Shown: one piece after another, positions 15,318 to 56,408 of the stretch | How positions within the stretch are numbered: the stretch's first letter is position 1 | Layout: each line of letters opens with the position of its first letter | Source of the DNA: a bacterium | Lineage (GTDB): Archaea; Thermoplasmatota; E2; JACPAO01; JAHFTW01 | DNA: 64,000 nucleotides | Direction of reading: 5' to 3' | NCBI GenBank assembly: GCA_040390065.1 | Contig: JAZJZE010000009.1 | Location: 346,930-410,929 of the forward strand | The notes under the pieces: model-generated | The model's input: only the letters and a program-made list of their open reading frames with translations | Databases searched by the model: none | What the model was told of the DNA's origin: nothing | Program-made: the position numbers and the translations under genes

Positions 15318-17243
15318 CTAGTGCGCCACCTTCTCCAGCGCCGCCTTCAACCTCGCGGAGATCAACTGCCCGTCCGCCTTGCCGCGCAACTCGGCCATGA
15401 CGGGGCCCATGAGCGGACCGATGGCGGCCATTCCCTTTGCCTTCACGAAGTCGACGCGCTCGGCGATCACTTTGGCGATGACGGCGTCCACGGCGGCCGC
15501 GTCGAGCGATCCTGCTCCAGCCTTGGCCATGGCGGCATCGAGGCTCTTCTCCCCGGCGTCGAGGGCCTTGAGGATGTCCGGGATGGCTTCCTTGGCGAAC
15601 TTGCCTGCGCGAAGGGCGGCAAACATCCCCGGCAGATGCGCGAGCACCGCGTCGGGCGTCTTGAGTTCCGGAAGGTACTGCAGCAGGACGCGCGCCGCCA
15701 GAGGGCCCTCGGCTCCGGCTTGCACGAGTTCCTGGAATTCCGCCTCCATGCCGTCGGCCACGAGTTGCTGCGCGATGTCCTTGCTGACGCCGTTTGCCTT
15801 GACGAACAGGGCGACCTTTTCCTCGGGCTTCGGCGGGAGGCGGCCCTTCACGTCCTTCCACGTCGCCGCGGAGACGAGAATTGGTGGCACGTCCGTCTCC
15901 GGATACATGCGGGCCGCTCCCGGCATGGGCCGCATGAAGCGCGTCGAATCGTCCGGCTGCACCGCGCGGACTTCCTGCTGGAATGCACTCGCCGCCTGAA
16001 CGTACCTTGCGGCTGCGGCGGCCACTGCCATCCTGGCGATGGCAGGCTTCTCGACGCACAACGCGAACGCGTCGGCGGCACCGCACCCGAGAAGCTGGCG
16101 CACGGCGTCGACTTCGGCCTGGGTGATGCCGTAGCCTGGCAACTCGTCACTGTGGAAGATACCCTTGACGCCGGCCGAGACCTTGGCGTGGTCGGCCAGT
16201 TCGCGGCCGAGGCGGGGCCCGTCCTTCGTCGCCCCCTTGAGGAGTCCCGCGCCGTGCTGGAGGCGTACTCCCATGACCACGGCGCCGCGCTGCAACGACT
16301 CCCGCACGACCTTCGCCGTCGTCGCCGCCAGCGCGGCCGTGACATCGTGAGGCACGTCGGCCTTCGCGCCGCCGAGCCGCTTCAACTCCTCCCGCACGTG
16401 GTGCATCCACAATTGCCGACGGCACTCCGCCTCGATGATGCGGGGAATCGCGCGCAGGTCCTGGCAGCCCTTGATCTCGACGCGGGCACCGACGCCGACG
16501 GAGACGTTGAGGTCCTGCCGGATGGTGCCGAGGCCACGCTTGACGCGCCCCGTCGCCCGAAGCAGGGCACCGATGCGGGCCGCGGCCCGTTGCGCGTGCT
16601 GCGGGTCCACGATGTCCGGCGCCGTCGCCACTTCCAGAAGAGGAATGCCGAGGCGGTCGAGAGTGTACGTCACGACGTCGGCTTCGCCTTCCAGCTTGCG
16701 CGCCGAATCCTCCTCCAACGCCATCGTCCAGATGCCCACGTCACCACCCTCCACGTCGAGCTTGCCACCGGTCGCGATGAGGGCCGTGCGTTGGAAGCCC
16801 GACGTGTTGGAGCCGTCGATGACGGTCTTGCGCATGACGTGCACTTCGTCGACGGGTCGGCCGGCTACGAGGCCCGCGAAGGTGAGTGCCACGTCGAGAG
16901 CATCGGTCGACATTGGGTGAGGCGGCTCTTCGTCCAATTCGACAAGGCTCGACAGGCCGTCCATCACGAGGTAACGGAAGCGACGGTTGCGCCTCGCCTC
17001 GGCCGCTGCCGCTGCGTCGACTTCGCCCAGCTCGGAGCCGGTCGCGCGAAGCACCCGCTCCACGGTCGCAACGGTGCGCCTGGCAACGTCGTCGGGTTCG
17101 ACCACGTCACTGGGGCAGGGGCTGAACAGCTTGCGCGTCGCCAGCTGCTGATGGATCTCCAGGCCACATCGGAAGCCGATGGCCTTGTAATCGAGCTTCG
17201 CCGCCTGGCTCGCGCGTGCCGCGTCGTCTCCTAACGTCGTCAT
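15318..17243 (-). CDS. gatE: Glu-tRNA(Gln) amidotransferase subunit E
   Basis: LDYKAIGFRCGLEIHQQL, IDGSNTSGFQRT, RPMPGAARMYPETD, GPLMGPVMAELRGKADG. Confidence 0.98.
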   Translation of the reverse strand: MTTLGDDAARASQAAKLDYKAIGFRCGLEIHQQLATRKLFSPCPSDVVEPDDVARRTVATVERVLRATGSELGEVDAAAAAEARRNRRFRYLVMDGLSSLVELDEEPPHPMSTDALDVALTFAGLVAGRPVDEVHVMRKTVIDGSNTSGFQRTALIATGGKLDVEGGDVGIWTMALEEDSARKLEGEADVVTYTLDRLGIPLLEVATAPDIVDPQHAQRAAARIGALLRATGRVKRGLGTIRQDLNVSVGVGARVEIKGCQDLRAIPRIIEAECRRQLWMHHVREELKRLGGAKADVPHDVTAALAATTAKVVRESLQRGAVVMGVRLQHGAGLLKGATKDGPRLGRELADHAKVSAGVKGIFHSDELPGYGITQAEVDAVRQLLGCGAADAFALCVEKPAIARMAVAAAAARYVQAASAFQQEVRAVQPDDSTRFMRPMPGAARMYPETDVPPILVSAATWKDVKGRLPPKPEEKVALFVKANGVSKDIAQQLVADGMEAEFQELVQAGAEGPLAARVLLQYLPELKTPDAVLAHLPGMFAALRAGKFAKEAIPDILKALDAGEKSLDAAMAKAGAGSLDAAAVDAVIAKVIAERVDFVKAKGMAAIGPLMGPVMAELRGKADGQLISARLKAALEKVAH

Positions 17244-18538
17244 GCCTTGGCCCCTGGCGCCGCGTGCGCTTCACCGAAGGCCCGCACGTCGATAGGCGCA
17301 TCCATCTCGCCAGCAACTGGGGACAAGAAGCGACGCCGCACCTCGTCGCGCGACTTGGCCCACTCGGGGTGGCCGAGGATCCACATCATCTTGATGTACG
17401 CCACCTCGGGCAACATGTCCTGTGCCGGGATGACACCCATCTGCAACAGGTCACGGCCAGTCGAGTAGACGTTCATGTTCACGGCGCCGCTCACGCATTG
17501 ACTCGCCATGACGACGTGTGCCCCCCTGTCGATGACCGCCTTGATGCCGGGGAGGCAGCGCCGCGCGATGTGCCCAAGCCCCGTGCCGACGATGACGGTG
17601 GCGTCGATCACGACGTCCTCGATGTGCTGCGGCCACAACCCCGGATAACTCAGGATCATGCTCACCTTCTCGTCGAAGCGCGCATCGCATGACGTCGACC
17701 CCTTCCCTGCCTTGACGTAGGGCCGATCCAGCCGCACGGCGCCCGCCTCGACGCGGCCGATCGGGGGCACGTTGATGGATTGGAAAGCGTCGCGCCGACT
17801 CGTATGCATCTTGCGCACGCGCGTCGCCCGGTGGACGAGGCAGACATCGTCCGACGACGAACCGTGCAGCACCGCCACGACTTCGCCAAGGTCCGTGGTC
17901 GCTGCCACCCGCGCCGCAGCCAGGAGATTCATGGAGGCATCCGACGACGGCCGGTCGCTGGAACGCTGCGAGCCCACGAGGACCACGGGACCGGACAAAT
18001 CGCGCAAAGCGAAGGCCAGGGCTGCCGCCGTGTAGGCAAGCGTGTCGGTGCCATGCGGAATCACGACGCCACGCGCCCCGTGATTGAGGTGCCACGCCGC
18101 CCGCTCCGCAATCTTCGCCCAATGCTCCGGCTGCATGTCCTCCGAGAACATGTTGAAGACCACCTCGGCGCGGATGTTGCAGAAGCCGAACAACTCCGGC
18201 GCCGCAGCCGCCAACTCCTCCGGCCGCGTCGCCGGGTGAACACCGCCCGTCCGGTAGTCGATGAAAGACGCAATCGTGCCGCCCGTACCCAGGATTGCAA
18301 TCGTCGGCTTCGACGGGTCATCCACGACCGGCTTGCTCTCGACCTGCCGCGGCTTGCCCTTCTCCACCAACTCGACCTTTGCACCCGCACGCGCCAAGCC
18401 GACGTTGTAACCATTATCCAACTTGAGCGTCAAGATGCCCTCCCCACTGAACGAATGCCGCGGCATGAGAAGACCATCGAACGTCGCCCCATCCGCCGTC
18501 GTGATGCGAATGCGGTCCCCCGGCTGCGGCTCGGACAC
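17240..18538 (-). CDS. gatD: Glu-tRNA(Gln) amidotransferase subunit D
   Basis: KLDNGYNVG, GTGGTIAS, HGTDT, GSQRSSDRPSSD, RKMHTSRRDAF. Confidence 0.98.
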   Translation of the reverse strand: MSEPQPGDRIRITTADGATFDGLLMPRHSFSGEGILTLKLDNGYNVGLARAGAKVELVEKGKPRQVESKPVVDDPSKPTIAILGTGGTIASFIDYRTGGVHPATRPEELAAAAPELFGFCNIRAEVVFNMFSEDMQPEHWAKIAERAAWHLNHGARGVVIPHGTDTLAYTAAALAFALRDLSGPVVLVGSQRSSDRPSSDASMNLLAAARVAATTDLGEVVAVLHGSSSDDVCLVHRATRVRKMHTSRRDAFQSINVPPIGRVEAGAVRLDRPYVKAGKGSTSCDARFDEKVSMILSYPGLWPQHIEDVVIDATVIVGTGLGHIARRCLPGIKAVIDRGAHVVMASQCVSGAVNMNVYSTGRDLLQMGVIPAQDMLPEVAYIKMMWILGHPEWAKSRDEVRRRFLSPVAGEMDAPIDVRAFGEAHAAPGAKA

Positions 18539-18618
18539 GATGGGGCGACGGTGCGAGGGGTTATGGGTTGTGCTGGTGGCGTTTCACTTGCCCCTTCGAC
18601 GCGGACTTGGCCTTTCGC

Positions 18619-18660
18619 GGACGTCCATGGCCGGCCAAGCACGTCCACGGACGTCCAGGC
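18619..18660. repeat. Helically phased direct repeats ACGTCCA (18621, 18641, 18651; degenerate at 18631)
   Basis: Read directly; GGACGTCC palindromes at 18619 and 18649; immediately upstream of RHH gene. Confidence 0.65.
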
Positions 18661-18669
18661 GGAGCCCGC

Positions 18670-18843
18670 ATGCCCAACCGAATCGACTACGCCTCCATCG
18701 AAATCCCCCGCATCCTGCACGACCGCCTGCGCATGGCGAAGGAGCATCATCGGCAATCGTATTGGGAACTGGTCGAGGCGATGCTGGATTATTGGGAGGA
18801 TATGGGCGGGTGGGACTACGGGAGGAGGCCGCCCGTGCCATGA
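18670..18843 (+). CDS. Small ribbon-helix-helix-like protein (57 aa), paralog of 40981..41163
   Basis: SIEIPRILHDRL..HHRQSYWELVE..WEDMGGW; beta-strand-helix-helix pattern. Confidence 0.7.
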   Translation: MPNRIDYASIEIPRILHDRLRMAKEHHRQSYWELVEAMLDYWEDMGGWDYGRRPPVP

Positions 18844-18856
18844 TGCGGCCGGGCCG

Positions 18857-19543
18857 TCAAATGGCCGGCCCGCTGGCTTCGGTGGCGAGGCGTTCGAATT
18901 CCGTTCGGATTCCCGGGCCGAAATCGTGCCGGCCTGCGATGGCGGCGGCGACGACGTAGGCCGCCAGACTGGCTCCGACGACGAGGGCGACGCGCCCCCA
19001 TGCATGCATCATGTCAGCGACATCCCCCCACGCGTCGCACATCACCGGGCGCACGGCCGCGTTGGGACAGGCCTTCCCGTTGGAGCTCATGTTGAAGCCG
19101 CCGATGACGAGCAAGAACGCTGCGGCGCTGCCGAGGCTCCATGCGCCGATTGCCCGGGGCGAGGGGGCGCCTGGCAGCGCCTGCTTGAAGGCCATCCAGC
19201 GGGACTTCGTGATGCGCCCGTTTGCAAGCCAACCTGTCGCGGCGCGTTCCATGCCACGGCAGGTCCAGGCCCGTCGAAGGCGCCATGCGAGAAGGCCGAC
19301 GAGGCCTCCCAGCCATCCTGCAGCAAGCGTGGCCGGGATGGCCTTGACCAGGTTTAGCCAGCCTTCCCACCGTTCGCGTACCGCCCATTCGGTGTCGGTC
19401 TGACCGCCGGGTGCGAAGCGCTCCGCGAAGGTGTCGAGCGAGATGACGACGGCGACCGCGATGGCGGCGGCGACGACGACCAGACGCAGGCGCGGCCGGA
19501 CAAGCCGCCCGCCAACCCAGTCGACCGGGGCCGCCCAGTTCAC
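18857..19543 (-). CDS. Multi-pass membrane protein
   Basis: GTG overlapping upstream TGA; about four hydrophobic segments. Confidence 0.6.
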   Translation of the reverse strand: MNWAAPVDWVGGRLVRPRLRLVVVAAAIAVAVVISLDTFAERFAPGGQTDTEWAVRERWEGWLNLVKAIPATLAAGWLGGLVGLLAWRLRRAWTCRGMERAATGWLANGRITKSRWMAFKQALPGAPSPRAIGAWSLGSAAAFLLVIGGFNMSSNGKACPNAAVRPVMCDAWGDVADMMHAWGRVALVVGASLAAYVVAAAIAGRHDFGPGIRTEFERLATEASGPAI

Positions 19544-19941
19544 GGTTTCAGCCCCTTCACCAACTCCAGCAGCTTGCCTTCGAGCATGTCGGATTTCTCC
19601 AACTTGTAGTCGTAGGCGACTTGCACGGTCTTGCCAGTGGCGTAGATGATGGAGGTTTTCTTGTCTTTGATCTCGTAGTCGAAGTCCCAGCTCTTGCCGC
19701 CAATGCGGCTGGTCCACATCTTGACTTGGGGTTGGGCGTTCATCTTCATGGGGTTCTTGTAGTCCAGGGCGGCGTGGGCGAGGATGAAGGGGAAGTCGCG
19801 TTCCGAGGTGGAGCCGGCGATTTCGGTGAAGAAGCGCATGCGGCAGTGTTCGAGGTAGGTGAGGAAGAGGGCGTTGTTGACGTGGCCCATGCCGTCGACG
19901 TCGTTGAAGCGCACGTCGACCGTGCAGCTGAAGGCGGCCAT
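19540..19941 (-). CDS. Acyl-CoA thioesterase (4HBT/YbgC family)
   Basis: VRFNDVDGMGHVNNALFLTYLE. Confidence 0.9.
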   Translation of the reverse strand: MAAFSCTVDVRFNDVDGMGHVNNALFLTYLEHCRMRFFTEIAGSTSERDFPFILAHAALDYKNPMKMNAQPQVKMWTSRIGGKSWDFDYEIKDKKTSIIYATGKTVQVAYDYKLEKSDMLEGKLLELVKGLKP

Positions 19942-20372
19942 CAGTTGCCTCCGACGATGCGTTGGACTTTGATGGCGAGGTCGTGCAGGTCTTCGGAGGC
20001 GGCGGTGGTGGTGCCCTTGAATGCGGCGTGGATGGGGCCGCCGCCGTCGCCCTTCGTGCGCGGGACGATGTGCATGTGCAGGTGCTGGACTTCTTGGCCG
20101 GCGGCGGGGCCGTTGTGGATGGCGAGTGTCGCGTCGGTGGCTCCAGTCGCTTTGCCCAGGGCTTTGGTGAGTCTGCGTGCGGCTGCAATCAGTGCGGCTG
20201 CGTCCTCGGGGCTGGCGTCTTCGAGTTTGGCGGTGTGCCGCTTGGGGACGAGGAGGGTGTGACCTGGCCGTAGCGGGTGGATGTCGAGGAAGGCGAAGAC
20301 GCGTTCGTCTTGGTAGAGTTCGGCGCTGGGGAGGTTGCCGGCGGCGATGCGGCAGAAGAGGCAGTCATCCAT
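19941..20372 (-). CDS. HIT family hydrolase
   Basis: CLFCRI, FLDIHP..GHTLLVPK, GQEVQHLHMHIVPR. Confidence 0.95.
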   Translation of the reverse strand: MDDCLFCRIAAGNLPSAELYQDERVFAFLDIHPLRPGHTLLVPKRHTAKLEDASPEDAAALIAAARRLTKALGKATGATDATLAIHNGPAAGQEVQHLHMHIVPRTKGDGGGPIHAAFKGTTTAASEDLHDLAIKVQRIVGGN

Positions 20373-20421
20373 CTTGCGTCGCGCAGGCTGGTGTCGGGCT
20401 TTAGCGATGCCGCCAGGGGGG

Positions 20422-20949
20422 TTACGCCTTGGCGGGCAGCGGCTCGAGGCTGCGCACGGTCACGGACTTGACGCCGCGTACGCGCTGCAGGGTCGGGATG
20501 AGGGTGCCGGGAATTGCCGTCGCGGTGACGACGAAGAGGACGGGCTCGTCGGTGAAGTCGGGGTCCTCGACGATGGCTTGCTTGATGCTGAGGCCGGCTT
20601 CGGCGATGGCGTGGCTGACGGCGGCGAGGATGCCGGGTTGGTTGGCGTCGGAGGCGACAATCTGCAGCACGCCGGCTCCCATGATTGGCCCGACGTCCTT
20701 GAGGTGGAGTGTGGGGGCGAAGCGGCTGAAGACGCGTGACAACTGCGGGTTGGCTGCGATGGTCTCGACGGTGGAGCGCACGATGCGGCGGTCGACGCCG
20801 GCTGCGCGGGCGAGCGCGGTGTCGGTGACTTCGATGGTGCCTGCAAGGACGCGGTCGCCGTCGATGCGCAGGCCGTTTTGGATCATGAGCCGGACGACTT
20901 TTTCCTGGGCTGGGAAGCGCCGGAAATGGTCGATGAGGACTTGCCACAT
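20422..20949 (-). CDS. Archaeal ACT-domain regulator of amino acid metabolism (COG2150-like)
   Basis: MW..F.RFPAQEKV, ALARAAGVDRRIV, PGILA..I...SIKQAI; divergent from aro operon. Confidence 0.85.
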   Translation of the reverse strand: MWQVLIDHFRRFPAQEKVVRLMIQNGLRIDGDRVLAGTIEVTDTALARAAGVDRRIVRSTVETIAANPQLSRVFSRFAPTLHLKDVGPIMGAGVLQIVASDANQPGILAAVSHAIAEAGLSIKQAIVEDPDFTDEPVLFVVTATAIPGTLIPTLQRVRGVKSVTVRSLEPLPAKA

Positions 20950-21081
20950 GTGGTGACCATTGCTCAAAAATGCACTTAACCGTTTGTTCGCGAGCATCTT
21001 GTGCCGAGTCGGGCACCCAGGCCCGGTGGCCCGGCGGAGGCGCGGCAAATCCAGATATAAGATGCCCCGCTGGGCGGCCGC

Positions 21082-33677: not shown

Positions 33678-33750
33678 GCCGCCTTAGCTTAGCTGGTGGA
33701 GCATCAGACTGTTAATCTGAGGGTCGTTGGTTCGAATCCGACAGGCGGCG
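33678..33750 (+). tRNA. tRNA-Asn (GTT)
   Basis: GCCGCCTTAGCTTAGCTGG..TCAGA-CTGTTAA-TCTGA..GGTTCGAATCC..AGGCGGCG; no encoded CCA. Confidence 0.96.
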
Positions 33751-37401: not shown

Positions 37402-38820
37402 TCACCAGGCGTTGCCGCGAACGACGGACTCGTCCATCTCAGCAACGTGGAACGCGCCGAGAAGGTCCGTGTAGTACACGTATTTCCCCCTCGGGATGGC
37501 ATCGTACACGACCGGGTCCGTCGTGTAGCCCAGGTAGGGGATTGCCGTCCGGCCGTGCGGTTGCACGAAGCCCAACATGACAGGCTGCTGTGCCTTCGCC
37601 AAGGTCGACACATCGAGAACGATGAGGCCGGCGTGCATGTGCGGCACGAAGAGTGTGCCATTGCGGATCTCGGTGCGGTCCGTGGAGAACATGTACGTGC
37701 CCCCCTCCGCCGGGTGTAATCCCGGAAGCTGCCACGTCCCGATGAGCTTGGGCGCCACGAAATCGGTTGCATCGACGATCCACAGGATGCCCTGCCGCGG
37801 ATAGCTCGTCGGATATTCGGGGGCAACCACGGCGATGCGGTGGCCTTCGATGGCCGTGAACTCCACGTTGTGCACGTTGCCCGGCATGACGACGGTGAAG
37901 GCGTCCCATTTGCCGAGGAACTTGGGGTTGGCTGGGTCGGAGACATCGACGAAGTGCGCGCCTCCCCGCCAATGGGCGACGGCCATGAGGGGCTTGCCGC
38001 TGAGCGGGTCCGGGTCGACGGTGACGTCGTGGATGTTGTAGGAGGAGAAGCCGTCCTGGCGATTGAGGGCGGCCTGCATGCCTTCCGGACTCTGGTACGT
38101 CGCGACAGGCGTCACGTGCGGCGCGGGCGTCGCGTCGAACCGCACGATGTCAATCTGCGCAAGCGCATTGTTCGTGCCAAAAATGTACGTTGCACCCCCG
38201 ATGACCTCGATATCGAGACGATGCCAACCGTTTCCACCTGGCACACCCTGCACCGTGGAGCCAGGCGAGCGCCAGAACGTCGCCAGCGTCGGGTGGGACA
38301 AGTCCGCCAAGTCGACGACCTGGAGGCCGCCGTCGCCGATGTACGGCAAGCCGCCGCCGGCCGCGTCGTTCTCCGCCGTGACGAGAGGCATCGTCGGCAC
38401 GAAGGCCCAGCGACCGTCGGCACTGACCTCCACGTCATTCGTGTCCGCCGTGCCCGCATCGAAACGGCCGACCTCGCGAGGCAGCGCCGCATCGGCGATG
38501 TCCAAGATGACGAAGCCCGCCGACGGGTGGAACAACGACACGAATGCATAGTGGCTCCAGATCGTGAACTCCGACGGCGGCGACGTCGACCCCGAGCCGT
38601 TCATGGGGAGCGTGGACTCGAAGACGTCATGCATGTGCCACGACGCGCCAGGATGCGCGGCCGGGTCCGAGTGGTCGTGGTCGTTGACGAGGTTGGCCTC
38701 GAGGAACGCCAGGCCGGCGGCTTCGTCGTCGGCAGGGGGGGACGGCGGGGCTGGTGTCGTGCAGCCGGCAAGGACACAGAGCAGGAGCAGGATGGCGGCG
38801 ACGACGTGTTGGATGCCCAC
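37402..38820 (-). CDS. LVIVD-repeat beta-propeller lipoprotein
   Basis: LAGC lipobox; GFVILDIAD, GLQVVDLAD, FVDVSDPANP, HAGLIVLDVS; distant paralog of 9323..10846. Confidence 0.85.
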   Translation of the reverse strand: MGIQHVVAAILLLLCVLAGCTTPAPPSPPADDEAAGLAFLEANLVNDHDHSDPAAHPGASWHMHDVFESTLPMNGSGSTSPPSEFTIWSHYAFVSLFHPSAGFVILDIADAALPREVGRFDAGTADTNDVEVSADGRWAFVPTMPLVTAENDAAGGGLPYIGDGGLQVVDLADLSHPTLATFWRSPGSTVQGVPGGNGWHRLDIEVIGGATYIFGTNNALAQIDIVRFDATPAPHVTPVATYQSPEGMQAALNRQDGFSSYNIHDVTVDPDPLSGKPLMAVAHWRGGAHFVDVSDPANPKFLGKWDAFTVVMPGNVHNVEFTAIEGHRIAVVAPEYPTSYPRQGILWIVDATDFVAPKLIGTWQLPGLHPAEGGTYMFSTDRTEIRNGTLFVPHMHAGLIVLDVSTLAKAQQPVMLGFVQPHGRTAIPYLGYTTDPVVYDAIPRGKYVYYTDLLGAFHVAEMDESVVRGNAW

Positions 38821-38863
38821 GGCCGCCGGAGGCGAGGCGGGTGTCTTGAAGGAATCGCGCGCC

Positions 38864-39739
38864 CTAATTCCCCTTGAAGTTCGCGACCCTCTTCTCGACG
38901 TACGCGGCGATGCCTTCCTTGGCATCCTTGGATCCAAAGAGTTCAGCCTGCAATTCGCGCTCCAAGGCCAAGCCGTACTCCAACGGAATCTCGGCACCGG
39001 ACTGCACGGCGCGCTTGATGCGGCCGGCCGCCATGGCCGCCTTGTTCGGGGTACTGAACTGGCCCGCGTAGTCGAGGATTGCCTGGCGGAAATCCGCAGC
39101 ACTTCCCGGGTAGATGTCCGTCACGATGCCGAGGTTCTTCGCATCCTCGAAACTGATGTTGTTGCCCGTCACCATGAGCTCGATGGCCTTGGGCTTGCCA
39201 ACGAGGCGAGCCAGGCGCTGCGTGCCCCCGGTACCGGCCAGCACACCCAAGTTGATCTCCGGCAGCCCGACCTTGCCCGCATCCTTGCGCGCGATTCGCA
39301 AATCCGCCGCCATGGCAATCTCCAAACCACCGCCGACTGCGTGGCCATTCAAGGCCGCGATGACCAACTTCGGCGTCTGCTCGAGGCGGCTCAACGTCTC
39401 GTTCGCATGCAAACAGAAGAAATACTTGTAGCCAGGAGTGACCTTGTTCAACATCTGGATGCTGGCCCCCGCCGAGAAGAACTTCTCGCCGTGCCCAATG
39501 AGGACGATGACGTGCACATTGTCATCGAAGCGCGCCTTCAGCACAGCCTCGTCGATGTCCCGCATCATCTCATGCGTGTACGTGTTCGGCCCCGACGCGC
39601 CCTCCTTGAGCGGCGCACCAGCCGAGTCGCTTGCCAACTCGATGACCGCGATGCCATTCGGCGTCACGCCATAGTTCACCAAACGGTTCGCCATCGGCGA
39701 GAGCTTCAAGGCAGTCTGGGCGGGCGCATTCTGGGCCAT
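38864..39739 (-). CDS. Enoyl-CoA hydratase/crotonase family
   Basis: FFSAGA, ALNGHAVGGGLEIAMAADLR, GLPEINLGVLAGTGGTQRL. Confidence 0.93.
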   Translation of the reverse strand: MAQNAPAQTALKLSPMANRLVNYGVTPNGIAVIELASDSAGAPLKEGASGPNTYTHEMMRDIDEAVLKARFDDNVHVIVLIGHGEKFFSAGASIQMLNKVTPGYKYFFCLHANETLSRLEQTPKLVIAALNGHAVGGGLEIAMAADLRIARKDAGKVGLPEINLGVLAGTGGTQRLARLVGKPKAIELMVTGNNISFEDAKNLGIVTDIYPGSAADFRQAILDYAGQFSTPNKAAMAAGRIKRAVQSGAEIPLEYGLALERELQAELFGSKDAKEGIAAYVEKRVANFKGN

Positions 39740-39839
39740 ACCACGCCCAGGAACGCCCCGTTCTTCAAGCCTTGGCCATGAGCCCCACTCCCACGAACAA
39801 GCCGGCGCACCCTTTATACGCCAAGGCAAGTCGGCCACA

Positions 39840-40169
39840 ATGACCGGCAACGGCTGGCACGCAGCCCTCCCCCTGACGGACGTGCCCAACGGCCGACCGC
39901 ACGAAGCCACCATCGCCGGCGTCAGCGTCCTCATCATCCGCCAAGGCAACGACGTCTACGCGACCACCCTCCACTGCCCCCACAAATTCGGCAACCTCGC
40001 CGAAGGCACCCTCGCCGGCCGTCTGCTGACCTGCCCCCAACACACGGCCACCTTCGACCTCGCCACCGGCCGACCCCGCCCGGGCGAAGAATGGGCCGGC
40101 AACCTCACCACATACGCATGCCGCGTCCGCGAAGGCCTCGTCGAAGTCCAACTCCCAGCCCTCGCCTGA
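39840..40169 (+). CDS. Rieske [2Fe-2S] ferredoxin
   Basis: CPH...CPQH..FDLATG. Confidence 0.92.
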   Translation: MTGNGWHAALPLTDVPNGRPHEATIAGVSVLIIRQGNDVYATTLHCPHKFGNLAEGTLAGRLLTCPQHTATFDLATGRPRPGEEWAGNLTTYACRVREGLVEVQLPALA

Positions 40170-40175
40170 ACCAGC

Positions 40176-40958
40176 CTAAATCGAATTCAGACGCCCGCCA
40201 TCCACCGGCATCACGATACCACGTACGAACGACGCAGCCGGCGAACAAAGGAACGCTACCGCGGCACCAATCTCCTCCGGGCGCCCCAACCGACCCTCGG
40301 GCTGCGCATCGATCCAACCCTGCCGCACCTGCGCCACCGACTTCCCCGTCCGCTTCGACGTCGCGTCACTCAGCTCGCTCAAACGCTCCGTGTCGGTGTA
40401 CCCCGGCAGAATGCAATTCACCGTGATCCCCGGCGGCAACTCCTTACTGAGCGTCTTCGACCAAGACGCCATGCTCGCCCGCATCGCATTGCCAATGCCA
40501 AGACCGACAATCGGCTCCCGCACCGACGTCGACAAAATGCTCACGATACGACCATACCCCGCCGCCTTCATCCCCGGCACACAAATCTGCGCCAACAGAT
40601 GACTCGCCAACTGGATACGCCCATACGCCTTCAACAAATCCGCCTCCGACACCTCCAACAACGGCAACGACGGCGGCCCCCCCTGATTGTTCACGAGGAT
40701 GTGCACCGGATGCTGCCGCACATGCGCCTCCACCTTGACACGCAACCCCACCCGGTCCTCCAAATCACAGGGCAAGACATGCACATGGCTGGCCCCAGCA
40801 GCCAACACCTCCTTCGCCGCATCGCGCAACTCGCCCTCGCGCCGCGCCAGCAACGTCACAATCGCACCGAGACGCCCCAGCTCGACCGCCGCGGCACGCC
40901 CAAGCCCCGCCGACGCCCCGCAAACAAGCGCATGCCGACCCTTCAAAGAAAGATCCAC
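40176..40958 (-). CDS. SDR oxidoreductase (atypical FabG-like)
   Basis: CGASAGLG, ILVNNQGGPP, TVNCILPGYTDTER, GRLGRPEE, VDGG. Confidence 0.92.
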   Translation of the reverse strand: MDLSLKGRHALVCGASAGLGRAAAVELGRLGAIVTLLARREGELRDAAKEVLAAGASHVHVLPCDLEDRVGLRVKVEAHVRQHPVHILVNNQGGPPSLPLLEVSEADLLKAYGRIQLASHLLAQICVPGMKAAGYGRIVSILSTSVREPIVGLGIGNAMRASMASWSKTLSKELPPGITVNCILPGYTDTERLSELSDATSKRTGKSVAQVRQGWIDAQPEGRLGRPEEIGAAVAFLCSPAASFVRGIVMPVDGGRLNSI

Positions 40959-40980
40959 GCCGCCCCCACGCCGCGGCCAC

Positions 40981-41163
40981 CTAAGACGCTTGGCCCGACC
41001 AAGGACCCGGCAAACCCACCCACCCCCCACGCTCCTCCCAGAACAAGAACGCCTCCTCGACCACCTCATGCAACGCCTGACGCGGATGCAAACGATGGCG
41101 CGCGATGAGATCACGAAGATAGGCGGGAATTTCGATGGTGGTGGAATCCGTGGTGCGGACCAT
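40981..41163 (-). CDS. Small ribbon-helix-helix-like protein (60 aa), paralog of 18670..18843
   Basis: TTIEIPAYLRDLI..LHPRQALHEVVE..FWEERGGW. Confidence 0.7.
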   Translation of the reverse strand: MVRTTDSTTIEIPAYLRDLIARHRLHPRQALHEVVEEAFLFWEERGGWVGLPGPWSGQAS

Positions 41164-41179
41164 GGCATAGGCACCGCGC

Positions 41180-41195
41180 GGTTCCTATAGGAGCC
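41180..41195. promoter_or_regulatory. Near-palindrome GGTTCCTATAGGAGCC over the probable TATA box of the RHH gene
   Basis: Perfect core TCCTATAGGA ~20-28 nt upstream of ATG 41163. Confidence 0.45.
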
Positions 41196-41249
41196 TCGCG
41201 GCGGGGGAACCGAAATCGCACAGCGGTTGGTGGCGCGGCCAGGCGCCGG

Positions 41250-41975
41250 CTATGGGATAAGCACGGCCCGCACCGGGCTGGCGTCGGCGCCTTCCAGCCG
41301 TAGGGGCAAGGCGATCAGGGTGTATGTTCCGGGCTTGACGTGGGCCAGGACGAGGCCTTCGAGGTTGACCATGCCGCGGGCGAAGAGGCGTTTGTGGGCT
41401 TCGAGGCCCTTGGAGGCGAAGAGGTCGGTGGAGGGTGTGTCCAACCCTACCAGGATGCAGCCGGCGTCGGCGAGGTGGTCGATGAGTTTTGGGTCGGGGG
41501 CGGCGAAGTCTTCGTTCCATTCGGTGGGGTCGGGGAATGTGCCGGTTTTGAGGAGGACGCGTGGCGTCGTGATGGGGGATGTGAGGTGAGCCGGGAGGAT
41601 GCGCTTGCCCCTTGCAGTCGTGGTCTCGATGACTTGGCAGGGTCCATAGTATGCCGTCAGGGGCATGGTGGCTGCGTCCGGGCCGTCGGTGGCGTAGTGG
41701 CGGTGGGCGTCGGTGTGGGCTCCGACGTGGAAGGAGGTGTGCATGCTGCCGATGTCGATGCCGTCTTTGTGCACGTCGGATGACTTCTCCATCTTGTAGG
41801 GGATGTCGCCGGGCCAGTTCTTGATTGCGTCGTTGATGGGGGGGGAGATGTCGATGAAGCGGACGAGCTCCTCTTTGGGCATGCCTGGCAGTCCCTTGTC
41901 GGCGGCGGCGCGGTCGGCGGCTCGGTCCGCGGCGCGGGCGGCGCTTTGGACGTCGCGCCAGGAGCCGGACTTCAT
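41250..41975 (-). CDS. kynB: Cyclase family / kynurenine formamidase
   Basis: IDISPP..WPGD, HVGAHTDAHRH, GLDTPSTD, NLEGL, GADASPVRAVL. Confidence 0.85.
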   Translation of the reverse strand: MKSGSWRDVQSAARAADRAADRAAADKGLPGMPKEELVRFIDISPPINDAIKNWPGDIPYKMEKSSDVHKDGIDIGSMHTSFHVGAHTDAHRHYATDGPDAATMPLTAYYGPCQVIETTTARGKRILPAHLTSPITTPRVLLKTGTFPDPTEWNEDFAAPDPKLIDHLADAGCILVGLDTPSTDLFASKGLEAHKRLFARGMVNLEGLVLAHVKPGTYTLIALPLRLEGADASPVRAVLIP

Positions 41976-43684
41976 GGGTGCGCCTTGGTTGGCATCTTGG
42001 CGACGACTTTGAGTTCCACGGCGATGGGGCCAGGGAGGGCTTGCACTTCAACTGTCGTGCGCGCTGGCTGGATGTTGCCGAAGTACTCATTGTAGACGGT
42101 GTTGAAGTCGGCGAAGTCGCGTTTCATGTCGATGAGGAAGGCGCTGACGTCGAAGACGTCTTCGAGGCTGGCTCCGGATTCTTGGAGGATGGTCTTGATG
42201 TTCTCGATGCATTGGCGGGTCTGCGCCTTGACGTCGTAGGCGAGGCGTTTGCCGTGTGCGTCGTGGACGGGGCCGCCGGTCGTCGCATTGGTTTTCGGGT
42301 GGCGGGGACCGATGCCGGCCAGGTACAGGAGGTCGCCGACGCGGCGGGCGTGGGCGTAGGCGGCGTAGGGTTTGGGGGCTTTGCTCGTCGCCACGACGCC
42401 TGACTTGTCAACAGATGGAACAGATGCACTAGATGACGAAATCTGTTTCTTCTCTTTCATCTGTTGACCCGTAGGGCGGGCAGCGGCCGTTTCCTGCAGC
42501 AAGGGCGAGCCGCCCCGCGGCCCTTCCGTCTTCGATGGCATGCGGCCTTCCCACTTGTCGCCCTCCTCCATGGTGAGGACGTTGAGTTGCGTTGCGCCGC
42601 CCGCGGAGCCGGAGGAGAGGACGTTGCGGTCGCCGCCGAAGTATTCGGCGTCGTCTTCGTCGAACTCCTTGTCGGCCGTGGCCTTCAAAGTCGGAGTGAG
42701 ACCGACGACGGCTGCGCCCGTCCCGTAGATGGGCTCGTAGGCGAACACGTTGCCGTCGTAGTGGTTGCTGGCGCCCATCACGGCGGACAGCCACCAGATG
42801 GCCTTCATCTTCTGGTCGCCGTTGGCTTGACCGGAGAATTCGCGGGCGAGTTGGCTCGCGTCCTCGAGGCGACCCTTGCCGAGGAATTCCAGGTACTTGC
42901 GGTTCCACTCGTCGTCCTTGAGGCTATGGATGCGGTCCTTCGCGAAGGGAATGATATCCGTGTGCATGCGGTTGCTGAGGGCCGTTACCGCAATTGCCAC
43001 GACGCGCTTGCCGGATGCTTGGACGGCGTCGCGGGCGGCCTTGCCGAGGACAATTGTCTCGGCGCGGTCGGCGTACATGTTGCACGACACGATCGAGGCC
43101 GCAATTTCATTCTTTGGCGACAATAGTTTGAGGGCCACGACGGAGCCGGTGTCGATGGGAAAACCGTGGTAGTCCACGGTGCGCATCTCCAGGCCGCGCT
43201 TCTCGCCGTGCTCGACGTACGACTTGCCAAAGGCTGGGTCCATGCGGAGCTTGTACGGAATGGAGCCGAGTTCATGCCATTCGGGGTCGACGTGGTTCCA
43301 CTCCGGCGCCGGCCGCGCTTGGACTTGGTGGCCGATGACCGAGAGCCACTGCGTCGAGTACAGCAAGAGGAGGTCGGGCTTGAGGCGCTTGATCTCGGCG
43401 CGCACGGACTCATAGGCGTCGCGGACGCGTTGGTACGCCGGATTCGCTTCGGGGATGAGGTAGGGGTGCGGAAGGCCAGGGACGATGAAGGCGGCGATGA
43501 GGCCTGGGCGCCCGTTCACCGACTGCGCCGCGGATGGCGCTGAGACCGCGGCGGCGTTCGGTTTCATCTGTTTCACGGGTTGACTCGACGAGCCACGGGC
43601 CGAACGAACCAAGGAACGCACAGACCCCGCTGAACGCGTGTTCTGTGGTTTCTGTAAAGTCTGCGGTTTGGTTTTGCGGGTCAT
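41972..43684 (-). CDS. amnA-amnD: 2-aminophenol 1,6-dioxygenase alpha subunit fused to RidA-family 2-aminomuconate deaminase
   Basis: AFIVPGLP, LYSTQWL, HVDPEW, GFPIDTG, DDEWNR, YGTGAAV (AmnA-like); YAHARRVGDLLYLAGIGPR..PARTTVEV..LPGPIAVELK (RidA). Confidence 0.85.
   Translation of the reverse strand: MTRKTKPQTLQKPQNTRSAGSVRSLVRSARGSSSQPVKQMKPNAAAVSAPSAAQSVNGRPGLIAAFIVPGLPHPYLIPEANPAYQRVRDAYESVRAEIKRLKPDLLLLYSTQWLSVIGHQVQARPAPEWNHVDPEWHELGSIPYKLRMDPAFGKSYVEHGEKRGLEMRTVDYHGFPIDTGSVVALKLLSPKNEIAASIVSCNMYADRAETIVLGKAARDAVQASGKRVVAIAVTALSNRMHTDIIPFAKDRIHSLKDDEWNRKYLEFLGKGRLEDASQLAREFSGQANGDQKMKAIWWLSAVMGASNHYDGNVFAYEPIYGTGAAVVGLTPTLKATADKEFDEDDAEYFGGDRNVLSSGSAGGATQLNVLTMEEGDKWEGRMPSKTEGPRGGSPLLQETAAARPTGQQMKEKKQISSSSASVPSVDKSGVVATSKAPKPYAAYAHARRVGDLLYLAGIGPRHPKTNATTGGPVHDAHGKRLAYDVKAQTRQCIENIKTILQESGASLEDVFDVSAFLIDMKRDFADFNTVYNEYFGNIQPARTTVEVQALPGPIAVELKVVAKMPTKAHP
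42407..42468. repeat. 9-mer palindromic element (copy B) in the AmnA-RidA linker
   Basis: GTCAACAGAT-GGAACAGAT-GCACTAGAT-GACGAA-ATCTGTTTC-TTCTCTTTC-ATCTGTTGAC. Confidence 0.88.
43514..43584. repeat. Degenerate 9-mer palindromic element (copy E)
   Basis: Right arm TTCGGTTTC-ATCTGTTTC-ACGGGTTGAC; left arm eroded. Confidence 0.5.
43599..43684 (-). repeat. N-terminal hairpin cassette (copy F)
   Basis: Homologous to 50987..51069; includes the start codon of amnA. Confidence 0.8.
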
Positions 43685-43939
43685 TTACGCTTCCCCCCGG
43701 CGAGGTGAGCGCGCAGCGATGGCAACCAGGCAACCCGCGGCCGCGCCCGCCACGAGTGCCGTGAGTACGGCCAGCAACGTCCCGCCACCGCCCTCGTACC
43801 AGCCTGCGGAGCGGCCACTGACTTCGCGTGCCACCGACCAAGCGAAGAGAGCCCCGTAGCTTGCGACGCCAACCACGATTCCAGCCACGATTGCACGTCT
43901 TGCAGCCCGGTTCGTTCGCGAGGCGGCTGGGACGCCCAT
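43685..43939 (-). CDS. Small two-TM membrane protein inside operon
   Basis: Abuts both neighbours with 0-nt gaps; two hydrophobic helices. Confidence 0.6.
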   Translation of the reverse strand: MGVPAASRTNRAARRAIVAGIVVGVASYGALFAWSVAREVSGRSAGWYEGGGGTLLAVLTALVAGAAAGCLVAIAARSPRRGEA

Positions 43940-44914
43940 CTACGTCCGCCCCCTCGGCGTGACTCGCCGCGTCTCCGGATTAGGGTCCCACTCCACGACG
44001 GCGTTGCCGGTGCCGATGACGGTGCCGTAGCCGTGCAGTTCCGCCGGGTACTTTGGGTACGAAAGTGCGGAAAGTAACCAGGACAGGCAACCGGCGTCGG
44101 CCTCGCTCGTCGCGTCGTCGATGAGGTCCGGCATCTCGTCGAACAGCTGCGCCGCGCGTCCTTCGCGCATGAGGCGGATGGCGTGCATGTCCCACAGGTA
44201 TTGTCCGTGGTGGTAGATGCGTTCCTGGCTCATGTCTTCGGGGAGGGCGCCTTCGCGCGTGAAGTGCCGATGGCTGATGGAATTGCTCGCGAGGAGGAGG
44301 GCGCGGCGTCCCGACTTCTCCACGGCGCGGCGCGTCGCTTCGCCGAGGGCCTTCTGCTGGGCTTGTCCGACGTCGTTGCTGTAATATTTATACGAACCAT
44401 TGGATGAAATGCCGACGATGGGTTTGTCCCACTTGGGATTCACCATGTGGCACGCCGCGATGGTGCCGTAGTCGACGCGGTATGCCGGGTTGCGCATCAT
44501 CTTCGTGACGAGGCCGGCGCCGCGGGCTTCCTTCTCGATGACCTCGGCGAGCTCGACGTCGACGTCGATGTCGCACTTGAAGCGGAAGAGGTTCGGGAAG
44601 ATCGGGTCGACGCTCAGGTTCGAGAAGTGCTTCACGCCGAGGAAGTGGTGGCCGACTTGGGTTCTCCAATGCGGCGAGTGCACGATGATGACATCGTATT
44701 CGCGCATCTTGCGGTCGAGGCTTGCCCGCAGCCGTTCGTAGCCCCACCGAACCGGCTCCCAGCCGCACTCGGCCGTCGCCTCGTTCTCTGGCGGGTTGTC
44801 GGCGTAGACGAGGTGGGGCGGATGCGGCGAGAGGCAACCGGCCACGATGCGGCCTTGCTGCGCCGTCGGCTGGGGGCGATTTTGGGCTTTGCCACGCGGG
44901 GCTTGCCGTGCCAT
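43940..44914 (-). CDS. amnB: 2-aminophenol 1,6-dioxygenase beta (catalytic) subunit
   Basis: SPHPPHLVYADNPPENE, VHSPHW, SVDPIFPNLFR, MMRNPAYRVDYGT, GYGTVIGTGNAVVEW, close to the recalled AmnB sequence. Confidence 0.9.
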   Translation of the reverse strand: MARQAPRGKAQNRPQPTAQQGRIVAGCLSPHPPHLVYADNPPENEATAECGWEPVRWGYERLRASLDRKMREYDVIIVHSPHWRTQVGHHFLGVKHFSNLSVDPIFPNLFRFKCDIDVDVELAEVIEKEARGAGLVTKMMRNPAYRVDYGTIAACHMVNPKWDKPIVGISSNGSYKYYSNDVGQAQQKALGEATRRAVEKSGRRALLLASNSISHRHFTREGALPEDMSQERIYHHGQYLWDMHAIRLMREGRAAQLFDEMPDLIDDATSEADAGCLSWLLSALSYPKYPAELHGYGTVIGTGNAVVEWDPNPETRRVTPRGRT

Positions 44915-55290: not shown

Positions 55291-55322
55291 CCTGAAGGCA
55301 AGGTTCCTTCAGGCGCCTGAAG
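55291..55322. promoter_or_regulatory. Three alternating CCTGAAG(G) sites forming overlapping inverted repeats
   Basis: CCTGAAGG-N7-CCTTCAGG plus perfect palindrome CTTCAGGCGCCTGAAG (55307..55322) in a divergent promoter region. Confidence 0.5.
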
Positions 55323-55391: not shown

Positions 55392-56408
55392 ATGGTGACG
55401 ATTCCCGGCTACCGAAACGACGAGGTGCATCCGACGCTGTCGCGGGCGCGCCCGTTGTCGCAGTTGCGTCTCGGCCAGGACGTCCTCGACCGACCGGCCT
55501 ACGGCGCCTGCGATGTCCTCGAGTCCGCGGGTGCCGGCGGTTTGAACGATTTCACGTTTGGTGGGTCGACGACGGGGGAGGCGTGGTCTGTGAATCCCTA
55601 TTCGGGGTGCATGCATGCGTGTACGTACTGCTACGTGCCGGACACGATCAAGGCGGAGCGGCGGCGTTGGGGCTCGTACGCAATCGTGAAGCGTGACTTG
55701 CCGACGCGGCTTGCCCGGGCGATGCAGGGCGCGAAGAAGATGACAGTGTACCTGTCGACGGCAACGGATCCGTACCAGCCGTTGGAGGCGGGGCACGAGA
55801 TCACGCGGCGGTGCCTCGAGGTACTCGTCCGCAGGGATTGGCCGGTTGAGGTGTTGACGCGCAGCCCTCTCGTCCTGCGCGATTTGGACCTCCTTTCGCA
55901 GTTGAGCCAGGTTCGCGTCGGCATGAGTGTGCCGACGTTGGATGACGCGGTACGGCGGGCCATCGAGCCGAAGGCGCCCGCCATTGCATCCCGGATGCGG
56001 ACGCTGAAGCGCCTGTCGGACGCAGGGATTGTGACGTTTGCGAACTACACGCCGGCGTGTCCGCCCACGACGCATGACGCGCAGGCCGTGGCGAAGGCAT
56101 TCCTCGATGCGGGCGTGCATTGGGTGAACTCGCGGGGATTCCAGCGCAAGGAGACCGCCTTGGTTCCCTTGTTCGACCGGCTCGTCGGGACGCCGTGGGA
56201 GGACCTGACGCGGTTCTTTGCCAGTGTGTTACGGCAGGACGAGTGGCAGCAGGCGTTGGGCCAGGCGTTTCGGCAGCTTGGCCTTCCCCTGTCGACGCCG
56301 TTCTTCAATCCGCCTTTCGAACATCTCGTTGCGCCGTTGCCATCGAGCTTCGGCCAATCGCGGCTCGACCAGATCTTGCTGCCCGCCCTGGCGTCGGCGC
56401 GCCGCTAG
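55392..56408 (+). CDS. Radical SAM protein, spore-photoproduct-lyase-like (Rv2578c type)
   Basis: VNPYSGCMHACTYCY, STATDPYQPLE, LTRSPLVLRDLDLL, IEPKAP. Confidence 0.9.
   Translation: MVTIPGYRNDEVHPTLSRARPLSQLRLGQDVLDRPAYGACDVLESAGAGGLNDFTFGGSTTGEAWSVNPYSGCMHACTYCYVPDTIKAERRRWGSYAIVKRDLPTRLARAMQGAKKMTVYLSTATDPYQPLEAGHEITRRCLEVLVRRDWPVEVLTRSPLVLRDLDLLSQLSQVRVGMSVPTLDDAVRRAIEPKAPAIASRMRTLKRLSDAGIVTFANYTPACPPTTHDAQAVAKAFLDAGVHWVNSRGFQRKETALVPLFDRLVGTPWEDLTRFFASVLRQDEWQQALGQAFRQLGLPLSTPFFNPPFEHLVAPLPSSFGQSRLDQILLPALASARR

Follow-up and report, generated by a model that had tools for sequence, protein, structure and literature searches.

Bipolar strand-skew domains centred on operator-like arrays in a high-GC Thermoplasmatota genome

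What causes the two strands of a short run of genes to exchange their base composition at a single point? The question arose from a 64,000-nucleotide stretch of an archaeal genome (GenBank assembly GCA_040390065.1, contig JAZJZE010000009.1, positions 346,930 to 410,929; hereafter the window), in which the original prediction, made from the letters of the sequence, described a sharp strand-composition flip at ~41.2 kb, centred on a small gene of ribbon-helix-helix (RHH) type. We found that this high-GC Thermoplasmatota genome contains five or more bipolar skew domains, of which this locus is one. Their arms extend 1.2-3.6 kb to each side beyond a neutral core of 220-300 bp. Comparison with related genomes suggests that the domains reflect a local, long-acting, strand-asymmetric mutation pressure, nucleated by a cassette of phased palindromes and a small gene. 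The genome under study (G000; its contigs are written C9, C48, C5 and so on, and its relatives G004, G010, G012 and so on) comprises 2.68 Mb in 50 contigs, at 67% GC and 89% completeness, and the window lies on contig C9.

A strand-composition flip and its counterparts

On the left of the flip (39600-41199) the + strand has a GC skew of -0.24 to -0.34 and an AT skew of +0.19 to +0.35 in 400-bp windows, and on the right (41200-42399) a GC skew of +0.22 to +0.33 and an AT skew of -0.09 to -0.40. Within the 64 kb only one 1-kb interval, 20001-21000, comes close to this locus in skew. Counted in + strand letters, the fourfold-degenerate sites comprise 24 A, 145 C, 26 G and 3 T to the left (39840-41100) and 6 A, 34 C, 153 G and 26 T to the right (41250-42400), with Fisher tests at 8e-39 for G/C and 6e-8 for T/A. 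In strand-corrected 500-bp windows z falls to -5.1 and -5.0 left of the flip and rises to +2.2 to +2.6 right of it. The original prediction had proposed such a strand-corrected comparison and had named the lack of a significant change of sign as the outcome that would speak against it; the sign does change.

The genome was also scanned at 2,589,085 positions with D, the difference in keto skew between the 1 kb to the right of a position and the 1 kb to its left (right minus left). D has a standard deviation of 0.074, a minimum of -0.322 and a maximum of +0.566, and the maximum is the 41.2-kb locus (window ~41096), the largest left-to-right jump in G+T of the 2.68-Mb genome. The flip first seen by eye is therefore present in raw skew, at codon position 3, at fourfold sites and in the D scan alike. 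The features of the domain, from left to right, are as follows; the array itself is described in the next section.

38864-39739, - strand: enoyl-CoA hydratase gene, in the outer, weaker part of the left arm (Pfam ECH_1, 8e-48)
39840-40169, + strand: Rieske [2Fe-2S] gene, in the left arm and antisense to the outward direction (Pfam Rieske, 3.5e-14)
40176-40952, - strand: short-chain dehydrogenase (SDR) gene, the core of the left arm, transcribed outward (Pfam adh_short_C2, 1.8e-33)
40981-41163, - strand: small RHH-like gene of 60 amino acids, a member of a multi-copy family
41090-41310, no strand: neutral zone between the arms, centred on the array
41250-41975, - strand: kynB-like cyclase gene, the core of the right arm, antisense to the outward direction (Pfam Cyclase, 8e-13)
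41972-42410, - strand: RidA (L-PSP) part of a long open reading frame (ORF; 41972-43684), in the right arm (Pfam Ribonuc_L-PSP, 8.6e-27)
42393-42488, no strand: hairpin repeat element, an inverted repeat with 38-nt arms, at which the right arm drops from ~+0.45 to ~+0.2

Per-gene figures use a gene set from our own crude caller (2530 calls, 86% coding, start codons approximate). For each gene we computed k3, the coding-strand keto skew at codon position 3, (G3+T3-C3-A3)/n, and ranked the 2191 genes of at least 100 codons; GC4 skew was ranked over 2389 genes. The norm for the 2191 genes is a mean C3 of 0.52, a mean G3 of 0.34 and a mean k3 of -0.174 (standard deviation 0.126). The Rieske gene, on the + strand, has C3 0.73, A3 0.15, G3 0.11 and T3 0.01, with a k3 of -0.76 that is second lowest of the 2191 and a GC4 skew of -0.72 that is third lowest of the 2389. 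The adjoining SDR gene, on the - strand, has G3 0.61, T3 0.22, C3 0.15 and A3 0.01, and its k3 of +0.67 is second highest. As had been noticed by eye, then, the + strand left of the flip is C/A-rich whichever way a gene runs; its G/T-richness on the right is equally evident from the kynB-like cyclase gene on the - strand (C3 0.67, A3 0.13, G3 0.19, T3 0.02; k3 -0.60, sixth lowest of 2191). Read on the strand that leads outward from the centre, the G/T share at third positions is 0.83 in the SDR gene, 0.88 in the Rieske gene and 0.80 in both the cyclase gene and the RidA part.

The strand-corrected third-position skew of the left arm is ~-0.8 over the SDR gene and -0.6 to -0.7 over the Rieske gene, steps to -0.49 to -0.13 through the hydratase gene, and is noise past -2.4 kb. 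On the right it is ~+0.45 for 1.1 kb, dips at the hairpin (+1250), continues at ~+0.2 to +1.9 kb, and is absent thereafter. The effect had been described as fading within ~1.5 kb; the right arm is strong for ~1.2 kb and continues weakly to ~1.9 kb, and the left arm reaches ~2.3 kb. At third positions the left arm begins at about codon 15 of the small gene. The cumulative keto walk falls to ~41090, is flat to ~41310 and then rises, which defines a neutral zone of 220 bp around the array; matching zones occur at C9:591875-592125 (250 bp) and C48:1100-1400 (300 bp). The small gene lies at the flip, as had been seen, and the neutral zone is centred on a motif at 41180-41195; the matches of the gene to RHH families are weak.

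Such domains recur. Eight upward peaks in the genome exceed D = 0.3, and each of the five strongest upward jumps has an exact copy of a 16-mer described below, a member of the small-gene family, or both, within 600 bp. Other strong upward flips lie at C9:591.9k, C48:1.3k, C5:23.8k and C9:117.2k, and at every flip the + strand passes, read from left to right, from C/A-rich to G/T-rich, whichever strand the genes occupy. The genes concerned are ordinary ones: a Trm1-like tRNA methyltransferase, an NTPase, a purN-type formyltransferase, a folC/Mur-ligase-type gene, an amidohydrolase and a cupin. The five downward peaks (D < -0.3) are ordinary divergent gene pairs. Known RNA genes were not found at the flip centres, the sole matches being a tRNA (window 33678-33750) and a tRNA-Arg ~1.6 kb to the right of the C9:592k centre.

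One-sided arms were also seen, at C5:202.8-204.3k and elsewhere. The gene in the former (C5:202815-204290, 491 codons), which by eye only we take for an AMP or thymidine phosphorylase and call deoA-like, has a k3 of -0.80, the most extreme in the genome; its orthologues have -0.20, -0.36 and -0.28. This arm ends at the stop codon, where synteny with relatives ends too, and no array was found beside the gene.

The array, the small-gene family and related genomes

Two elements lie between the small gene and the cyclase gene:

41169-41196, - strand: putative operator-like array of three 8-bp units at 10-bp phase (AGGCTCCT, AGGAACCG and CGGTGCCT)
41203-41217, - strand: conserved box GATTTCGGTTCCCCC (in the sense of the small gene), upstream of the array

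The array is a run of 8-bp palindromes, AGGNNCCT, set 10 bp apart, with three units here and ~8 at C9:591943-592030. It stops 5 nt before the ATG of the small gene, and its TATA centre lies ~24 nt before that ATG. Within it, upstream of the small gene, is the 16-mer GGCTCCTATAGGAACC (41180-41195, - strand). A motif search at the flip centres, which the original prediction had recommended, proved informative: this 16-mer has exactly three copies in the genome, the one in the window and those at C9:591973 and C48:1290, and these are the three sharpest flips. The three strongest sites share a symmetric TCCTATAGGA core with near-symmetric flanks (...CTCC-TATA-GGA(A/G)C...). Strict two-unit arrays at 10-bp phase number four on the + strand and, with this locus, five, all of them intergenic; four of the five have D > 0.2, the one without a flip being C9:471217. 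Spacings other than 10 bp have 0-1 occurrences. At C48, at C9:592k and between purN and folC in G004 the array stands without the small gene, yet skew is present. The box at 41203-41217 is possibly the promoter of the cassette, and boxes like it, G(A/T)TTCAC...CCCC, precede most family members and recur at C48.

The small-gene family has five copies in G000, and a search of relatives (12 within the genus and 19 from the rest of the taxonomic family) gave 37 more matches in ten of them, so that 11 of the 32 genomes are matched. The relatives with matches are 9 of the 12 in the genus and 1 of the 19 outside it, with up to 10 copies per genome. Three further G000 copies are at flips, at C5:23898, C9:117245 and, weakly, C9:365599 (window 18670). 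Most family members have phased palindromic units 3-35 nt upstream of the start codon, and paralogues differ in their palindrome. In the relatives the pattern GGCTCCTNNAGGAACC has 9 matches in 6 of 12 genomes, versus 3 for the reversed control, and at 6 of the 9 a family member starts 16-18 nt downstream. The cores in relatives can be other than TATA (TTAA, CTAG, TCGA) and still have weaker flips. No partner gene is conserved beside family members, whose neighbours differ (the SDR gene, the Trm1-like gene and others).

The ORF at 40981-41163 itself has no Pfam match. Among 12 family members, five match DUF7557 (best 1.5e-5), and single members match the N-terminal region of BfmA (E 1.3e-4), RHH_10 (E 0.11), TraY (E 0.13) and VapB (E 0.31); the best match to a solved RHH structure, AmrZ, is not significant (E 0.81). 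As leads only, the family also matches an Atlas cluster (score 0.91), 26% of whose members carry RHH_1, and a PHROGs search gave nothing beyond leads; what appears to be a strand-helix-helix pattern may be read by eye from the family alignment. In a large protein collection we found 117 homologues of the small protein, this genome's own copies included, under the source label Thermoplasmatota archaeon; those with names are called hypothetical, "predicted DNA-binding protein" or "transcriptional regulator". These weak but mutually consistent observations suggest that the small gene may encode an RHH-like regulator.

Several relatives of the array and of the small gene were noted in passing. The paralogue at 18670-18843 (+ strand) is 40% identical to the small gene, has a different palindromic operator (GGACGTCC, present twice), and is flanked (17240-20739) by a weaker flip of the same polarity, with a residual of -0.35 for the gene on the left and +0.28 and +0.52 for the genes on the right. 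A third such site in the window, at 55301-55318, is the array-like AGGTTCCTTCAGGCGCCT with a GGTTTCGCGCCCCCC box beside it; the gene downstream (55392-56408) has a k3 of +0.30 and the gene to the left -0.44. At C1:207414-207883 a family member is fused to a nucleotidyltransferase (MNT-like) domain, the whole being 145 amino acids long.

The relatives serve as natural experiments. The genes of the locus are syntenic in up to 13 genomes of the same taxonomic family and have ordinary codon usage there. With the small gene directly upstream, the SDR gene has a k3 of +0.67 (G000) or +0.26 (G004); in the 10 of 10 relatives that lack the cassette, and in which the cyclase and SDR genes adjoin, it has -0.03 to -0.41. 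The folC gene, where an array without a small gene separates it from purN, has +0.50 (G000) and +0.36 (G004), and in the 11 of 11 relatives where purN and folC abut it has -0.07 to -0.31. The other genes behave likewise: the Rieske gene has orthologues at -0.06 to -0.18, the cyclase gene has cassette-free orthologues at 0.00 to -0.30, the RidA part is at -0.59 versus a mean of -0.18 in 13 relatives, the hydratase gene is at +0.13 versus -0.35, -0.37, -0.35 and -0.12 in four orthologues, and the amidohydrolase is at -0.63 in G000 versus -0.15 to -0.30 in 12 relatives. A case outside G000 is a LigB paralogue with a k3 of +0.39 in G012, where a family member lies upstream, versus -0.21 to -0.45 in ten relatives. 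Because orthologues are skewed only in the presence of the cassette, the effect follows the cassette and, at two loci, the array alone. Over the 18 strong loci of the gene family in relatives, D averages +0.125 where the gene begins; it exceeds the G000 99th percentile at 7 and is below zero at 1. Seven weaker matches show no trend in D. We attach no p-value to these figures, as the relatives are not independent.

In G004, the closest relative (L030, C17; ~4150 and 17348), the cyclase and SDR genes lie 13 kb apart and inverted. Array-like remnants with a weak upward flip were seen at both breakpoints. The cassette marks a rearrangement breakpoint in that genome.

Two explanations that would make the flip something other than a mutational signal can be set against these data. 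That it is an assembly chimera or a palindromic assembly artefact we consider hardly conceivable: an 18,280-nt contig from a separate assembly of the likely source sample matches 38000-44000 with 0 differences (it rests on the same reads and is not fully independent), the reading frames are intact, the gene order around the centre is also found in G010, and no long inverted repeat crosses the centre, nor are there long direct or inverted repeats within 38500-44000. Scarcely more credible is foreign codon usage acquired with horizontally transferred genes, or translational selection on codons. The genes of the locus are indeed codon-usage outliers, but in 10-13 relatives these genes keep their synteny and show no skew, the skew's sign tracks position and not gene strand, and A3 or T3 is raised here whereas likely highly expressed genes are very low in both. 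The original prediction had listed a chimera and foreign codon usage among the findings that would overturn it, and the matching contig with its supporting observations excludes the one as the orthologue comparison excludes the other.

Mutational spectrum and mechanism

To polarise the changes we took the majority third base of cassette-free relatives as the ancestral state, pooled eight genes from three loci, and read the letters on the outward strand, 5' to 3'. At twofold sites, ancestral C is T in G000 at 96 of 210 positions, ancestral G is A at 4 of 240, and ancestral A is G at 7 of 9. At fourfold sites, 314 ancestral C are now C at 89, G at 167, T at 45 and A at 13, and ancestral G is kept at 229 of 278. 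C and A have been lost from the strand leading away from the centre, to an extent at least 20 times that seen on its partner. That G prevails at fourfold sites would reflect a balance in which this loss is countered by the strong preference of the genome for G or C at third positions. The polarised substitutions, the skew of synonymous sites on either gene strand and the unskewed cassette-free orthologues together bear out the earlier suggestion of a localized, long-acting, strand-asymmetric mutational process.

The pressure is also visible at codon positions 1 and 2, where the corresponding skew (k12) is +0.231 for folC in G000 versus +0.054 ± 0.018 in 10 relatives, +0.112 for the SDR gene versus 0.000 ± 0.039, and -0.073 for the Rieske gene versus +0.105 ± 0.052; the amino-acid composition is shifted in the same direction as the skew. 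Because the frames are intact and synonymous change is saturated, the pressure must have been gradual and long-acting, under selection, and not a single burst.

Two biochemical leads were followed and set aside. An enzymatic deaminase with a TC-type context does not fit, since loss of C is lowest after a 5' T (0.50) and highest after a 5' C (0.80), in a comparison that is confounded with codon degeneracy. Repair-gene content is uninformative as a reason for G000 being the strongest case: across the 13 genomes of the genus (G000-G012) a UDG-family gene is found in 13 and Endonuclease V (PF04493) in none. G000 has both RNase HI and RNase HII.

The original prediction took a switch from C/A to G/T to be the established polarity of a bidirectional replication start. 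Bacterial oriC does show this upward switch, which is attributed to deamination on whichever strand spends more time single-stranded. The rule is bacterial and does not carry over safely to archaea: the mapped origin of Haloferax volcanii has the opposite sign, being a local maximum of the cumulative third-position GC skew (PMC12999951). Nor does the genome itself lend support to a replication start. The prediction had correctly noted that no orc1/cdc6 gene is adjacent; contig C9 has none at all, and the only two Cdc6_C matches genome-wide, C11:201686 and C5:166405, are at loci without flip or arms. The genome has no DnaA match, the cumulative strand-corrected third-position skew has no replichore-scale trend on C9, C5, C1 or C11, and there are at least five centres, each reaching 1-4 kb. 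The 10-bp-phased AGGNNCCT units are the sole repeats at the array; they are unlike the repeats beside the C11 Cdc6 gene, in a comparison made with the latter and with no origin recognition box (ORB) model scored. A canonical Orc1/Cdc6 origin thus fails on the three features tested: an adjacent gene, an AT-rich or ORB element, and a chromosome-scale switch. As a separate observation, three direct repeats of ~52 nt lie just past the 3' end of that Orc1/Cdc6 gene (L001:1240-1402, C11:201425-201587), where there is no local skew flip; they are candidates for origin repeats.

The observations described so far suit any process that keeps the outward strand single-stranded or makes it anew time after time. 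We tentatively favour, as a working explanation, divergent transcription with R-loops from the cassette. The cassette would act as promoter and operator and launch transcription outward both ways, the non-template strand of the outward units would be single-stranded unusually often, probably in R-loops, and C and A would deaminate on the exposed strand. Bidirectional initiation from one symmetric TATA is known in Pyrococcus (PMC6640164), and at human promoters GC skew predisposes to R-loops (PMC3787257). R-loops become steadier as the displaced strand gains G, and the process could therefore be self-reinforcing, which could explain the extreme values. Several details of the domains fit. The array occupies the usual position of a promoter, its TATA centre being ~24 nt before the ATG and upstream regions in this genome having an A/T bump at -35 to -26; arms begin at the start codons of the outward genes C9:591887, C9:592132 and C48:1412, two of which have a TTTAT(C) box at -26; the arms step down at a gene boundary and at the T-rich hairpin; no skew is seen in the ~100 nt of intergenic DNA next to the arrays; and one-sided arms exist, which we also count in favour of transcription.

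Other observations weigh against this explanation. Intergenic TATA boxes have a mean D of -0.02 to -0.09, and the other 31 intergenic palindromes with an A/T core, other TATA palindromes included, have D of -0.23 to +0.18, so that a TATA box or a symmetric TATA palindrome as such is rejected as a sufficient cause. The first 50 codons of genes genome-wide are only 0.07 higher in k3 than later codons, and genes with a high-expression codon signature are C-rich on the coding strand (for example C10:48691-49863, k3 -0.52, A3 0.02). As ordinary promoters have no effect, the array or the protein bound to it must add something specific; at C1:207414, two CCTATAGG cores 10 bp apart stand without a skew flip. 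RHH autoregulators are usually repressors, and strong transcription from the cassette is not expected on that ground. Several arms would need long antisense RNAs over intact genes (kynB/RidA, purN, the deoA-like gene), the most extreme gene of all, the deoA-like one, is on an antisense arm without an adjoining array, and the left arm at 41.2 kb starts ~45 nt inside the small gene and not at its ATG. The G/T share of the outward strand is moreover equal (0.80-0.90) in sense and antisense arms, a symmetry that a process at the level of DNA fits at least as well.

One such process, the main rival, which we regard as possible though doubtful, is that the array marks a start of DNA synthesis or a fragile site: an origin-like site, a fork barrier with recombination restart, or a place that is repeatedly nicked or broken and then repaired by outward re-synthesis of 1-3 kb to either side. 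The outward strand would in that case be the new strand, in which wobble errors (G:T and T:G) raise G and T, or else the displaced single strand. The polarity would suit any outward synthesis, the arms are symmetric in absolute composition on either gene orientation, and at C9:592k they cross convergent genes and a tRNA gene. With their 3-8 units at 10-bp phase the arrays resemble iterons, and synteny breaks at centres (the G004 inversion with array remnants on both sides, and after the deoA-like gene); the weak matches to BfmA/BtgA and TraY are to RHH proteins of relaxosomes. Gene conversion has been tied to the same kind of skew in the bacterial GRINS (PMC8256042), and recombination-dependent replication is known in archaea (PMC12999951). 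Set against this are the lack of an Orc1/Cdc6 gene nearby and of any flip at the two Cdc6 loci, repeats at the C11 Cdc6 gene that are unlike the array, and a GC content of 0.66 at 41000-41399, with no AT-rich region for unwinding. The ~100 nt on each side of the arrays, which would be re-synthesised most often, are unskewed, although constraint may explain part of this; no relaxase (PF03432) and no Y1 nuclease (PF01797) were found in the 89%-complete G000; and 5' to 3' resection from a central break would be expected to expose the opposite strands.

A further account, which we consider unlikely, is a polar nucleoprotein footprint, in which the small protein or a partner spreads outward from the array, as a directional filament or a translocating machine mirror-imaged on the two sides, and makes one strand prone to base loss or hidden from repair. 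It would suit the way the effect tracks the array even where the small gene is missing (C48, C9:592k and the purN-folC spacer of G004), the symmetric neutral core of 220-300 bp centred on the array, and the absence of effect at ordinary promoters and other palindromes. There is no sign of spreading, however, the idea being purely inferential, nor does any conserved partner gene accompany the family, and one-sided arms such as that at the deoA-like gene occur without an array.

Known systems and implications

The closest known counterpart to these domains is GRINS, duplicated regions (>80% identity) in polyketide synthase gene clusters of bacteria and some eukaryotes that have been tied to gene conversion (PMC8256042). 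In both, correlated GC and TA skews run for hundreds of bp to kb inside working genes and change abruptly, the skew is strongest at third codon positions, and amino acids shift between Gly/Val/Cys/Trp and Pro/Thr/His/Gln; for GRINS, too, the same text gives the mechanism of the skews as not known. The arms, at 1.2 kb or more with |GC skew| of ~0.3 and |AT skew| of 0.1-0.4, also have the length and skews by which GRINS are recognised (>500 bp, mean absolute GC and TA skews >0.15, positively correlated). Unlike GRINS, the arms are single-copy, the hairpin element being their only self-match in the genome, and they lie in archaeal metabolic genes, always as a C/A-to-G/T pair centred on a defined array. 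The word "archaea" is absent from the main text of the GRINS paper (PMC8256042). A literature search on skew found no kb-scale bipolar skew domains around a binding-site array in archaea, a statement on which the supplementary tables of the GRINS paper may bear.

The domains share with origin skews the upward switch from C/A-rich to G/T-rich on one strand. Origin skews are weak and run over hundreds of kb, whereas these are extreme, span 1-4 kb, occur several times per genome and lack an Orc1/Cdc6 gene. Human CpG-island promoters that form R-loops offer another likeness, in that skew begins at the transcription start and the non-template strand is G-rich (PMC3787257); divergent pairs of such promoters would give a flip of sign. 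The domains differ from them in a much larger amplitude, in the loss of A as well as C, and in the lack of such an effect at this genome's ordinary promoters. No prokaryotic counterpart of GC-skewed R-loop promoters turned up in the literature search on skew.

For the centre itself there are also precedents. The archaeal RHH regulators aCcr1 and CdrS have ~58-60 amino acids and a palindromic box between the TATA region and the start codon (PMC9976878), as the small gene does; its protein differs in having no significant match to a solved RHH structure. The symmetric element around TATA at the three strongest sites, which could start transcription both ways, recalls the Pyrococcus furiosus promoters in which B-recognition elements (BRE) flank a TATA box as BRE-TATA-BRE, with two divergent starts ~50 bp apart and a sterile antisense RNA over the upstream gene (PMC6640164). 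Unlike those promoters, the flanks of the array are not known BRE sequences, and relatives have non-TATA cores. The tandem phased units would lend themselves to cooperative binding by RHH dimers. MetJ, omega and ParG are RHH proteins that bind arrays of short repeats, and to our knowledge no flanking skew has been reported for aCcr1, CdrS, MetJ, omega or ParG.

What is new here is the cassette at the centre and the evidence, from its presence and absence, that it nucleates the skew. Neither the recurrence of the flip nor the motif and its array formed part of the original prediction. It is conceivable, if still doubtful, that an RHH-like protein and its phased palindromic sites form a portable nucleation point for a strand-specific local mutator. 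In that event a cassette would drive a few kb on each side to ~80-90% G/T at synonymous sites of the outward strand, the neighbouring enzymes would be recoded and evolve faster, and the same process would underlie the unexplained skews of bacterial GRINS. Local mutation rate and spectrum are usually ascribed to replication, expression level or sequence context. In this genome a defined element that can move appears to govern both in its surroundings, overriding codon preference and shifting protein composition. Intense local skews have lacked an explanation since the description of GRINS in 2021, and the domains offer a way into the problem through a centre, a motif, a candidate protein and comparisons among sister genomes. 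The domains also mislead skew-based prediction of archaeal origins, detection of horizontal transfer by codon usage, and gene callers, and they distort dN/dS. If R-loops or repair synthesis prove to be the cause, such loci are natural reporters for these processes in uncultured archaea.

We finally note the small repeats of the region. The hairpin at 42393-42488 has arms made of CATCNGTTG-type 9-mers and lies in frame within the long ORF at 41972-43684 (- strand), which by Pfam joins a RidA to a LigB domain, at the point between the two; further copies are at C17:43673, C9:398589, C9:356116, C5:285464, C1:210875 and C5:95490. Where relatives lack the cassette, other arrays of short repeats lie between the cyclase and SDR genes, made of GGAATCC-type units in G012 (L023 4640-4932) and 9-mer hairpin units in G019 (L033 1305-1570) and G008 (L022 5593-5735). 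Intergenic spacers in the genus gather several kinds of small repeats.

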